The notes beneath the pieces are model-generated. The model saw nothing but the letters and a program-made list of their open reading frames with translations. It searched no databases and was not told the origin of the DNA. DNA of 64,000 nt from a virus (taxonomy: Duplodnaviria > Heunggongvirae > Uroviricota > Caudoviricetes). The stretch lies in the IMG/VR virus record IMGVR_UViG_3300021399_000101, positions 1,630-65,629 of that record; one strand, 5' to 3'. Every line of letters starts with the position of its first letter. The first letter of the stretch is position 1. Shown in pieces: positions 5,445 to 8,790 of this stretch. A program made the translations under genes and the position numbers.

Positions 5445-5636
5445 TTATTTTTGCGCCAATTTTCTCTGATGCTCTTTTTCCATCTCAATCTCTTCCTGAA
5501 CTTGCCGTATGTAGAATTTGAATTCATAAGGTTCGAGATTCTTAAGCTCATCCAAAGTAAATCCTTTTTTCAGAAGCCAATAATAATTACTCCTGATTAT
5601 GTTCAGATTCTCCCTGCTCATAACGAAACAGGGCAT
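5445..5636 (-). CDS. gp51-like hub-assembly catalyst / C-terminal part of the tail assembly chaperone
   Basis: NYYWLLKKGFTLDELKNLEPYEFKFYI..VQEE resembles the small ORF that follows gp26 in T4-like phages. Overlaps the upstream gene by 50 bp in the +1 frame; no SD. Confidence 0.6.
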   Translation of the reverse strand: MPCFVMSRENLNIIRSNYYWLLKKGFTLDELKNLEPYEFKFYIRQVQEEIEMEKEHQRKLAQK

Positions 5637-6570
5637 CTACGTTCAAATCAACGGAGCTCCCTTCAATTTCTTTACCGCATTTTGGACAGTTTGTATTGTT
5701 TACAATATGAGTAAGACCGTTATCAAACTGGGAATATTTAAGAATGACTTCTGAATCTTTATGAGGAAGATTGTTATAGAATATAACCCAATCCTCTTTT
5801 GGAACCTCTTCACCATTAGGATTTATTATTGCTATTGTTCTTGTAAAAAGAAAATCAGCAATTCCGACATTCTTTCTTTCCCCAAGAATCCAAGACATCT
5901 CTCTTATAGTTCTTATTCTTGGAATGCCAAGCAATACAGTATAATCTGTTGCTGGAAGGTCAACTCTTATAGGTTCACGGAATGTATCTGTATTTAATTC
6001 ATCAAATTTCTGTTCAGAAATCTTAATCTCATATTTGAATTCGTGACCGCAATGTGGGCATGTAATATTGAAGACAAATTTATCCGATATTGATATTTGC
6101 CTTAGATACATCATCAGATAATAGAAATCTGACACAACAAGGTCCATTGCATCAATATTTGATTTAAGGCAATTATTAAGTGCCATAATTGTAGCAGTGC
6201 CTTCGTTTATATATTTAGGCGTTGAGAGGATCTCTTCTTCTTTCATTGTAAGAGGATATATATATACATAACCTTCTCTTACGTCCTTATCGTCGCAGCT
6301 TTGATACGGAAGACCATTTGACGGAAGCTTTACTCTGTCAGCCGGAACAAATTCAAATTTTCTTGGATACTTTTCAAAGTGTTCGATTTTATAACCACTT
6401 GATACAAGTTCAGAAACTTTCTGTTCTTTTGTTTCTGATTTCTGTTCTGCTTTCTTCTCTGCCTTTGCCTCAAAAGATTCTATAGAAGGATTGCTTCCTT
6501 TTATGGCATTTAAATTTGAAATCTTGCTGATATCAATCTTTATCTCATCTTTTTTCTGTTCATTGTCCAT
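5587..6570 (-). CDS. gp26-like baseplate hub / tail assembly chaperone with two CxxC motifs
   Basis: PLTMKEEEILST, YLRQISI, CPHCG and CPKCG. Confidence 0.7.
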   Translation of the reverse strand: MDNEQKKDEIKIDISKISNLNAIKGSNPSIESFEAKAEKKAEQKSETKEQKVSELVSSGYKIEHFEKYPRKFEFVPADRVKLPSNGLPYQSCDDKDVREGYVYIYPLTMKEEEILSTPKYINEGTATIMALNNCLKSNIDAMDLVVSDFYYLMMYLRQISISDKFVFNITCPHCGHEFKYEIKISEQKFDELNTDTFREPIRVDLPATDYTVLLGIPRIRTIREMSWILGERKNVGIADFLFTRTIAIINPNGEEVPKEDWVIFYNNLPHKDSEVILKYSQFDNGLTHIVNNTNCPKCGKEIEGSSVDLNVDALFRYEQGESEHNQE

Positions 6571-6598
6571 AACTTTATGTTCCTATATAAATATAAGA

Positions 6599-6790
6599 TT
6601 CGGCGACGAGCGAAGCGAGGAGACGATTTCGGATTGAGCTGAACGTAGTGAAGCGAAAATCCGAAACTCTCAAAACTTAGTAATAGACTAGGTGTTTGGG
6701 CAGATCCCCCAGTACCTGCCAATCTAGCTTATTATTCAATTTTCAAGGACGCCCTCCGGATTACCATCCTCCGGGGCGTCCACCCTGCTT
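6599..6790 (+). other. Cluster of GC-rich ssDNA-type hairpins in a divergent intergenic region; candidate replication origin / single-strand initiation site
   Basis: C-GA-C-GA-GC-GAA-GC-GA-G-GA-G (6604-6622); TTTCGGATT-GA-GCT-GA-AC-GTA-GT-GA-AGC-GA-A-AATCCGAAA (6627-6666); two further stems at ~6685-6728 and ~6748-6781. Confidence 0.55.
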
Positions 6791-7033
6791 GTCTTCTTAA
6801 TTTTTATTTTTGCTACTTTCGCAATTGCTCAACTGACCTCGCGTTCTTCTTTCTATTCGCGTCTTCAATTTTCCTTGTCTTTTTTAACTTCTTAATTTTA
6901 TTCTGTTTTCTTTAGTTTCTTAAGTTTTAATAAAACATTAATTATATACGACACGTAAGACTTTTAATTTTGAAATTTGCAAAAATTCTTAATTTTTAAT
7001 ATTTTTGCTTAAGACATATGAAACAAAAGAAGT

Positions 7034-7043
7034 CAAGTTAATT
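7034..7043 (+). promoter_or_regulatory. Recurrent phage promoter-like motif (CAAGTTAATT)
   Basis: One of about 12 copies of HAAGWTAAW(T/A) placed just upstream of operon starts (see finding). Confidence 0.6.
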
Positions 7044-7056
7044 ACAGAGGAAAAGT

Positions 7057-8790
7057 ATGCTTTTAAATGAGAGTGGAATAAGACTACCAAAAGGAACAAA
7101 AAGCGCTACAATTTTAACGCACCGTGACTTAGATGGATTTGTTTCTGGACTTTTAGTATATAATCAATTAATAAGGCAGGGAATCCCTGCAGAAAGAATA
7201 AATATAAAATTTGTTCAGTATGGCGATAATGATATACTTGATAAGGCAACCAGAAAAAACAAGAATCAAGCAATATTATCATGTGACTTCTCTGCATTTC
7301 CAAAAATAAACATGGAAGACAGCTGGAATGGTTTTGCAAAGACATATGACAAAGAAAAAGACAGAAATTTCAGTCCTGATAAATCTGCAAGTTATGAATC
7401 TTTCAAGAAGCAGTTCATAAATTCAAAACCAAGCTTTAAAACAATTTCTGATTTCCTTAAGAAAAACAATCCGAATGCTGTTCTGTTCGCGAAGCCAAAA
7501 GACTCATCAGTAAGAATTTCATTGGAAAACTTTATTAATGGGTGGAAGTCACACAAAGGAAACGATGATGTTGCCCTTACAGATTTAGATTGGACATCTG
7601 ACCATCACTCAAACGAAAAAGGCGATTTGGTTCCTGGAAAATCCGGAAAGATAGGAGCCAATTATCCTTCTGACTCAGAGCATATAGCAACTGTTGCAGC
7701 CCAAGGCTTAATGAATTGGGATGATATAGAAGCAGTATCGAGAGTAGACTCAGCCAAATATAAAAATTTGAAAGATGTTTTATCTCTTCCATCTGCTCTT
7801 GGAAGCAAAGACAGAAAGGAAAGGCTTGCTATATTAATTACTGCAATGATAGGCCCTATTGTATCAAATAATGATAGGCTTGCAGAATTAATGATCAAGC
7901 GTTCAACACCAAGTTTAATATCCATATATAATAATGCTCTTAAGATTGCAAAGCTTACAGATAACGAGCTTAAGGTTCTAAGCGAGCTTAAAAATGAAAA
8001 GCCAGATTGGAATTTAATAAACGAACTGACAAAAGACCTTCCTGAGCATGAAAAGAAAAAACTTCTTCAGAACAGAGATGAAAACAAGAAAATAAAACCT
8101 GTTCAGAGTGTTGATGCTTTAAGAAATAAAAACATCAACAACATTGAAAGAGAAAAAAAGATTGATAAATCTGATTTTAAATTCTATGGAAATATAGCAG
8201 TATTTGAATCAAGAGTAAGAACTGACCAACCATCAAGATATTTATTCGCATTCTTGGAGCATGAAGGTAAACAGCCAGCTTTCTCAATAAGAAAATTCCC
8301 TGGAATGGGAATGATTCAAGTATCATGTTCTCCGCTTCTTTCCGAAAAAGATAAAGAATCAATTGACCTAGAGGCTGTATGTAAAGATGCTATAAAAGCC
8401 GCTAAAGAAAAAGGGCTTCTAAATGACTTTACGGAAAAGCTCATTCTTCAGAAATCCGGTGGCCATAAAGCAATTTATAATTTAAGTAATCTTGGTATAG
8501 TTGGAAATATAACACCAACACCAGGAGAAAGATATAGAATTAAAGACTTAACTGATTACGAAAACAGAAGAAAAGCGCTTTATAAGAATGCAGTTTCTGA
8601 ACTTACAAAGAAAAACGCAAAAGCACTTCCAAATAAAGGAAAAGAGCTGGAATCTTTAAAATCAATTAAAAGTAAGGCAAATAAAGAGGTATATGATTTC
8701 TTAGTTGATTATATAATAAGAGAGCTTAAATCTAGATATGGAAATATACAACCCAAGTTGTCAGACTTTAAGATAAAGATGGAGAATTGA
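7057..8790 (+). CDS. DHH/DHHA1-family phosphoesterase
   Basis: ILTHRDLDG (motif I), SCDFS (II), TSDHH (III), and C-terminal SGGHKA (DHHA1-type GGH). Confidence 0.75.
   Translation: MLLNESGIRLPKGTKSATILTHRDLDGFVSGLLVYNQLIRQGIPAERINIKFVQYGDNDILDKATRKNKNQAILSCDFSAFPKINMEDSWNGFAKTYDKEKDRNFSPDKSASYESFKKQFINSKPSFKTISDFLKKNNPNAVLFAKPKDSSVRISLENFINGWKSHKGNDDVALTDLDWTSDHHSNEKGDLVPGKSGKIGANYPSDSEHIATVAAQGLMNWDDIEAVSRVDSAKYKNLKDVLSLPSALGSKDRKERLAILITAMIGPIVSNNDRLAELMIKRSTPSLISIYNNALKIAKLTDNELKVLSELKNEKPDWNLINELTKDLPEHEKKKLLQNRDENKKIKPVQSVDALRNKNINNIEREKKIDKSDFKFYGNIAVFESRVRTDQPSRYLFAFLEHEGKQPAFSIRKFPGMGMIQVSCSPLLSEKDKESIDLEAVCKDAIKAAKEKGLLNDFTEKLILQKSGGHKAIYNLSNLGIVGNITPTPGERYRIKDLTDYENRRKALYKNAVSELTKKNAKALPNKGKELESLKSIKSKANKEVYDFLVDYIIRELKSRYGNIQPKLSDFKIKMEN

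Follow-up and report, generated by a model that had tools for sequence, protein, structure and literature searches.

The stretch of DNA analysed here, called the window below, comprises 64,000 nucleotides (bases 1630–65629) of a 207,680-base record of a T4-like phage, the start sequence of which recurs at the record end. A gene-free gap at 6571–7056 marks a strand switch between a hub gene on the minus strand and a DHH gene on the plus strand. Left of the gap, the minus strand carries genes for a gp26-like baseplate hub, gp32, uvsX and a uvsW-like helicase. A preliminary description of this DNA had located an element next to gp32/uvsX/uvsW and confined it to 6599–6790. The strand switch is indeed near these genes, but the immediate neighbour is the gp26-like hub gene, and gp32 starts about 1.4 kb away. 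Likewise, the left end of the element is real but the right limit is not, since the element reaches to approximately 6950. From left to right this module (6598–6950), which is single-copy in the genome, consists of two hairpins on the plus strand (H1 and H2), a core, a hairpin on the minus strand (H4), a tract with repeats that is pyrimidine-rich on the plus strand, and a leftward orphan motif. The features of the locus are as follows:

5587–6570, minus strand: gp26-like baseplate hub gene, left neighbour (PHROG 150, E 2e-21; PF12322 on homologues)
6590–6597, minus strand: promoter-like motif C[GT]TATAT[AT], 27 nt upstream of the hub start codon
6598–6627 (core 6604–6622), plus strand: DNA hairpin H1, C-GAA-G loop, two tandem GA/GA steps
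6627–6666, plus strand: DNA hairpin H2, C-GTA-G loop, GA/GA and GA/GAA loops, 9-bp base
6695–6709: near-invariant core TTTGGGCAGA(A)TCCC, a G-run on the minus strand, with mostly invariant columns in 11 sequences
6747–6781, minus strand: hairpin H4, GGTA/GATA loop, GNA/GNA or GA/GA inner loop, bulged C
6790–6940, minus strand: A-rich (54%), purine-rich (73%) tract of 72% A+T, no conserved ORF or fold
6943–6950, minus strand: orphan promoter-like motif CGTATATA, pointing left, no downstream gene; same or close motif in related sequences
7035–7042, plus strand: second promoter-like motif AAGTTAAT, before the rightward gene; recurs 11–31 nt before other genes, putative role
7057–8790, plus strand: DHH-superfamily phosphoesterase gene, 577 aa, right neighbour (PF01368 in 12 of 40 homologues)

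The DHH protein is conserved, and its DxDG, DHH and GGH motifs look intact. Its model (pLDDT 87) has a RecJ/Cdc45/NrnA fold, with an archaeal RecJ as the top Foldseek match (E 3e-5) at low TM-scores. In close and mid-distance relatives the gene adjoins the module or sits within a few genes of it, and the protein could process RNA or ssDNA there. The phage also has replication genes of its own, namely a DnaB-like helicase, a primase, a 5'-3' exonuclease and a two-gene DNA polymerase. The two polymerase genes (425 and 546 aa) correspond to two halves of PHROG 405 (G000:C1:197451-201027); this split polymerase is apparently of the DnaE type, which is unusual in a T4-like phage. A search for gp59 gave no match, and neither did its control search. 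No cultured relative was found, the top UvsX matches having less than 30% identity. Within the 5' part of the hub gene, an 11-pair terminator-like hairpin is present at 6480–6506.

Two adjacent hairpins with GNA triloops and tandem GA mismatches had been described on the plus strand, and H1 and H2 can be read exactly in this way. With one point scored per Watson-Crick pair and two per GA loop, they are the sole C-GNA-G hairpins with tandem GA loops and a score of at least 8 in the 207.6-kb genome, and each of 30 locally shuffled genomes contained none. The folding of 6599–6790 is better than that of 200 of 200 shuffles, with z-scores of −3.1 for DNA and −3.9 for RNA. The single GA-GNA match in genome G001 is intragenic.

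For a comparison with relatives, syntenic loci were gathered via the two neighbouring proteins, hub and DHH. Single-protein searches of viral contigs had returned no relatives, whereas alignments did. The loops of H1 and H2 read GAA, GTA, GCA, GGA and once GTTA within the close clade, and the closing pair is invariably C-G. The stems show the compensatory changes that had been suggested as a check, with two-sided exchanges from GC/GC to AC/GT, from GG/CC to AA/TT and from GCT/AGC to GCG/CGC. Across relatives, stem steps swap among GA/GA, GNA/GNA and Watson-Crick; in two of them (L096 and L101) one GA/GA step is replaced by two Watson-Crick pairs and the other by a GNA/GNA loop. The 23 distinct hairpin variants, which are related so that their counts are not independent, contain 271 Watson-Crick pairs, 35 GA-type loops and no G·T pair. 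For H1, 92% of the cells pair, as opposed to at most 36% with the partner slid, in an alignment of only seven sequences. Among GC-NNN-GC loops tested, a hyperstable mini-hairpin in DNA is obtained with GNA alone, and a related hairpin is far less stable as RNA than as DNA (PMC13037366). Because of the compensatory changes, the C-GNA-G triloops and the lack of G·T among 271 stem pairs, H1 and H2 look selected to fold as plus-strand DNA. These observations, together with the occurrence of the same hairpin in ssDNA viruses (see below), lend good support to the earlier proposal of a functional ssDNA structure. The module is a real, conserved DNA-level structure and is likely to have a function. 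Its evolution is evidence that selection acts on tandem G·A and GNA/GNA steps in DNA and that these can be exchanged for Watson-Crick steps.

Two long GC-rich Watson-Crick stems had also been proposed to follow on the plus strand. The first (6686–6728) forms in only two of 11 related sequences and has to be abandoned; conserved instead is the primary sequence of the core, the position of which is occupied by CAGACCTCC or CCCCTTAGACCCC in distant relatives. The second (6747–6781) is conserved, but as the minus-strand hairpin H4 with an inner loop rather than as a plain plus-strand stem. Hence, the assignment to the plus strand holds for H1 and H2 but not for H4. Nine of the 12 predicted pairs of H4 are changed on both sides among eight sequences, its inner loop reads GGA/GGA, GGA/GTA, GGA/GAA or GA/GA on the minus strand, and six variants have no G·U pair. 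H4 fits a DNA or an RNA fold. A long-range RNA fold of the module was rejected, as just H4 and a 3-bp stem survive. A pattern search with the core gave five matches in unrelated contigs, which were judged to be chance hits, and searches with a 21-mer of H2 and with a core-plus-H4 pattern gave no match.

On the right of H4, the purine bias of the tract lies in the top 0.05% of the genome windows of 150 nt. It contains two to three repeats with a TCGC core, spaced by about 18–20 nt (6819, 6839 and 6857). For the 150 nt from 6706, the predicted stability of RNA:DNA over DNA:DNA for a leftward RNA is in the top 0.03% of genome windows, and the melting ease of the tract is moderate (13th percentile within the phage genome). 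The distance from the orphan motif to the core is 228–290 nt in 13 sequences, and this interval in relatives comprises 41–49% A and 63–68% purine without a conserved reading frame. A small ORF within the tract was discarded, as relatives differ in its start, frame and length.

Two promoter-like motifs, C[GT]TATAT[AT] and AAG[TA]TAA, were observed genome-wide, and both are unlike the T4 late consensus. C[GT]TATAT[AT] is probably a phage promoter, since 19 of its 27 intergenic copies lie 13–82 nt ahead of a same-strand ORF. Five copies precede an ATG by exactly 13 nt, which suggests leaderless mRNAs. A T4 late promoter TATAAATA on the plus strand (6588–6595) was considered as the driver of a rightward RNA and dismissed; it is unconserved in relatives, and most genome copies are intragenic. 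Extra genes are found between the orphan promoter and the DHH gene in three relatives (L035:5175-5939, L096:2426-2920 and L101:2439-2921), one of them NUMOD1 homing-endonuclease-like. Inserted genes never lie inside the module in the loci examined.

The leftward orphan motif raises the question of a minus-strand noncoding RNA gene of about 250–290 nt, consisting of the A-rich body, H4 and the core, with H2 and H1 as a DNA roadblock or boundary that insulates the promoter of hub, gp32, uvsX and uvsW. The conserved promoter-to-core length and the covariation of H4, which is plausible as an RNA fold too, would fit such a gene, and H1 occupies the slot in which seven other promoters of the same class carry terminators. 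However, approximately 170 nt of the RNA would have no consensus structure and poor sequence conservation, and the six H4 variants are free of G·U. The RNA complement of H1 reaches only −4.2 kcal/mol, compared with −11.6 to −22.4 kcal/mol for the other terminators. No Rfam covariance model matched, and tRNA and tmRNA scans were empty as well. Moreover, the bipolar hairpins and tandem repeats of other lineages would be left unexplained. We therefore regard a noncoding RNA gene as the main rival to the origin proposed below, conceivable but rather unlikely.

H1 directly abuts the hub promoter-like motif (6590–6597), which also brings a hairpin promoter of the N4 type into consideration. In that case, H1 would act as a promoter element in the template strand of the hub operon, with the rest of the module as upstream regulatory DNA. 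Its strand and its position immediately upstream of the hub motif agree with this, and N4 promoters employ GGA or GAA mini-hairpins. Yet no ORF comes near 3,500 aa, the largest of the phage having 1,862 aa, and no other promoter of the genome has such a hairpin, which makes an N4-type promoter highly improbable.

The pattern extends beyond the close clade. Most relatives at 33–40% protein identity retain the divergence upstream of the hub gene. C-GNA-G hairpins number 36 in 38.7 kb upstream of hub genes versus one in 340 kb of flanks, the flanks being mostly coding sequence and the loci including some near-duplicates. The hairpins occur in 20 of 69 hub loci, and several relatives have a gap of about 100 nt without any. 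Hairpins committed by GA steps to one strand are hub-proximal on the plus strand and farther away on the minus strand in the clade of the window, in L048, L083 and L088 and partly in L129. Separate lineages, at 33–40% protein identity, thus show this polarity at the same divergence of genes. Between the plus and minus groups lies the core, its variant CAGACCTCC or the C-run motif CCCCTTAGACCCC. Tandem repeats are present in L083 and L129.

Several side observations were made in these loci. Lineages at about 35% protein identity (L054, L060, L068, L082, L088 and L128) have in common a C-run motif of the CCCCTTAGACCCC type upstream of their hub gene. Its leftward transcript would carry two G-runs, reminiscent of mitochondrial CSB II. 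In a clade at 42% identity (L041:3930-4050 and L046), the hairpin loop could pair with an adjacent 6-mer; the resulting pseudoknot would include a G·U/G·T pair on the minus strand. The near-identical contigs L047 and L049 differ in the orientation of the 3-nt loop (GAA versus TTC) of a perfect 11-bp palindrome, located 78 nt upstream of the hub gene, and so show a flip-flop polymorphism.

Perfect palindromes flip strand between relatives (L047 versus L049, L104, L115). Such inversion would be in line with hairpins that extrude like cruciforms and serve a terminase or a junction nuclease at a packaging-initiation or recombination site, as would the single copy and the nearby uvsX, uvsW and RecJ-fold genes. 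This function is nevertheless improbable. The GA-mismatched hairpins fold on one strand only and their polarity is fixed, and the orphan promoter and the purine tract are unaccounted for. Furthermore, T4-like phages package by the headful mechanism without a fixed site, with which a fixed packaging site is at odds.

The 18-base centre of H1 was found in 34 viral contigs. In 21 unrelated contexts, the next base outwards pairs in 16 cases and the following one in 12, where about 30% is expected. Three matches belong to ssDNA viruses, namely two CRESS genomes, one of which is circovirus-like, and a microvirus. The 18-mer lies between Rep and capsid on the nonamer strand of the circovirus-like genome, and between Rep and capsid on the coding strand of the microvirus. 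In microviruses and CRESS viruses alike, the identical 18-mer falls between genes; wherever its strand was checked, this was the coding or the nonamer strand. Four hairpins of this kind lie within the large gap of an annotated microvirus (L106:2930-3150), and small Acinetobacter plasmids carry a cluster of GA-zipper GNA hairpins downstream of mobA (pWM99c-1, L105:1350-1530). Most of the remaining matches are in dsDNA contigs with uninformative neighbours, many with no Rep gene identified nearby. The GA-zipper hairpin family accordingly recurs in phages, ssDNA viruses and plasmids, and has no known reader. In the literature accessible to us, which excludes most subscription journals, no paper was found on the module or on the GA-zipper family in phage origins.

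Palindromes without function, either selfish or mutationally self-perfecting, could in principle have gathered in the largest local gap. The same 18-mer in at least 21 unrelated sequence contexts and the patchy occurrence in the phage family are what such elements would leave behind. They should not, however, be limited to one copy per genome as seen here, nor keep position and polarity fixed, and the GA/GA and GNA/GNA loops are retained rather than perfected to Watson-Crick pairs. Absence of function is consequently a very remote explanation.

All parts of the module are covered most simply if it is read as a replication origin opened by transcription and similar to T4 oriF, in which the hairpins are priming or loading marks, and for this reason we prefer this reading. 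As for the origin proposed in the preliminary description, it is the best reading, drawn from the anatomy of the locus, and we estimate its probability at roughly 55%. RNA polymerase would start leftward at the orphan promoter-like site (6950) and transcribe noncoding DNA, rich in A and in purines, over about 250 nt as far as the G-run core. The RNA would remain paired to the plus strand as an R-loop, and the displaced minus strand could fold H4. Opening beside the core may then allow the plus strand to fold H2 and H1, which lie on the template strand of the putative orphan transcript, not on the displaced strand. Presumably, these mini-hairpins would resist SSB and mark the site of action of the phage primase or DnaB-like helicase, or of the changeover from RNA to DNA. 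Plus-strand hairpins on the left and minus-strand hairpins on the right would suit two forks departing in opposite directions. Transcription, R-loop formation, protein binding and initiation are all inferred here from the sequence.

The single copy, the recurring polarity of plus hairpins on the left and minus hairpins on the right, the 18-mer in gene gaps of ssDNA viruses and the phage's own helicase and primase speak for an origin. Against it stand the restriction of the hairpins to 20 of 69 hub loci, the flipping palindromes, the terminator slot of H1, the moderate melting, the presence of the 18-mer in many dsDNA contigs, and T4 oriF and oriE, which are devoid of such hairpins. A GC-skew minimum at the site had been suggested as a check. 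The cumulative GC skew is indeed lowest at the gap of the module. However, at fourfold-degenerate sites the plus genes are C-rich and the minus genes mostly G-rich on either side of the gap, and no strand-composition switch independent of gene direction was found at these sites, where few genes run against the grain. The skew tracks gene strand. Since the minimum mirrors gene direction, it provides no independent support for an origin and was rejected as evidence.

A bolder proposition would be that a large dsDNA phage family initiates at a bipolar origin of sheared-G·A DNA hairpins, read on both strands by phage primase or helicase without a gp59-type loader, using a signal that microviruses, CRESS viruses and small plasmids also carry between their genes. 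We put this forward tentatively, as a possibility that we ourselves rather doubt. If true, the widespread GA-zipper mini-hairpin would generally mark single-stranded DNA for priming or loading. T4 origins have no common local sequence motif (PMC3016281), and origins of large T4-like phages are hence hard to predict from sequence. The locus offers a compact single-copy origin candidate whose natural compensatory variants are ready-made mutants. With it, the question of the hairpin reader becomes testable with three phage proteins, primase, helicase and gp32.

Known systems share individual traits with the module. A ColE1-type primosome assembly site had been invoked for the hairpins, and ColE1 does carry the apex named there, CGAGCGTAGCGAG at 1331–1343, next to GAAGCGG. 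The ColE1 n'-pas/ssiA shares the GAGCGNAGCGAG apex (ColE1 1332–1343) with H1, where it is found at 6608–6619 of the window. In ColE1 it lies approximately 150 nt beyond the G-run of the primer region. GAAGCGG, which we take to be the consensus of the ColE1 and phiX174 n'-pas, is present in both reference sites and absent from both strands of 6501–7100. Moreover, the template for the putative orphan transcript is the strand that carries H1 and H2, and, unlike ColE1 and phiX174, the phage has its own helicase and primase. A primosome assembly site of the PriA/ColE1 type is therefore not supported. The GAGCGNAGCGAG apex of ColE1 is located downstream of an RNA-primed origin (PMC3167613).

PeSL cassettes of T4-type phages are multi-copy, with sigma70-like promoters and RNA terminator function (PMC2839356). 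Like the module, they place a stem-loop beside a promoter and an AT-rich stretch; the module, in contrast, is single-copy, of DNA type and located among core genes, and a search for sigma70-like promoters gave one weak match versus 2.1 expected by chance. The CS-6 hexamer TAGCG[AT] that defines the sso of rolling-circle plasmids (PMC10378824) is absent in the window and occurs in loops of some relatives. N4 virion RNA polymerase promoters have, like H1, a C-GNA-G hairpin on the template strand just upstream of the likely start. They differ in that the phage has no gene for such a polymerase, a single site and additional GA zippers. The module lacks the n'-pas motif as well as the defining traits of PeSL cassettes and N4 promoters.

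The primase sites of G4, St-1 and alpha3 are marked by mini-hairpins, which are found in RSF1010 ssiA as well and are only weakly bound by SSB (PMC13037366). The G4, St-1 and alpha3 origins and RSF1010 ssiA/ssiB resemble the module in their C-GNA-G or C-GNNA-G mini-hairpins on the template strand, and the relative L096 carries the GCGTTAGC apex of St-1 and alpha3. RSF1010 and the module alike have signals on both strands. However, these systems are ssDNA phages or a small plasmid, whereas the module belongs to a 208-kb dsDNA phage, and a scan of G4 revealed no tandem-GA zipper hairpin.

T4 oriF and oriG each combine a promoter with an A+T-rich unwinding element, where a persistent R-loop forms; the more active T4 origins are near strand switches (PMC3016281). 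Similarly to oriF (ori-uvsY) and oriG, the module has a promoter-like motif that leads into an A+T-rich, A-rich tract close to a divergence of transcription, the tract having 72% A+T and a duplex energy of −1.19 kcal/mol per bp, compared with −1.17 kcal/mol per bp in the first 150 nt of oriF. The distance between T4 oriF and gene 26 is 1.1 kb, and the oriF primer belongs to the same strand as that gene; closeness to a gene-26-like hub gene and the strand of the primer, which is putative in the module, are thus common to both. In contrast, oriF is primed by the uvsY mRNA, made from a MotA promoter, and a scan of the oriF and oriE regions found no GNA/GA hairpins, whereas the module has a putative noncoding transcript, flanking bipolar hairpins and a conserved core. 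By analogy, the module resembles T4 oriF in its layout and the priming signals of G4 and RSF1010 in its hairpins.
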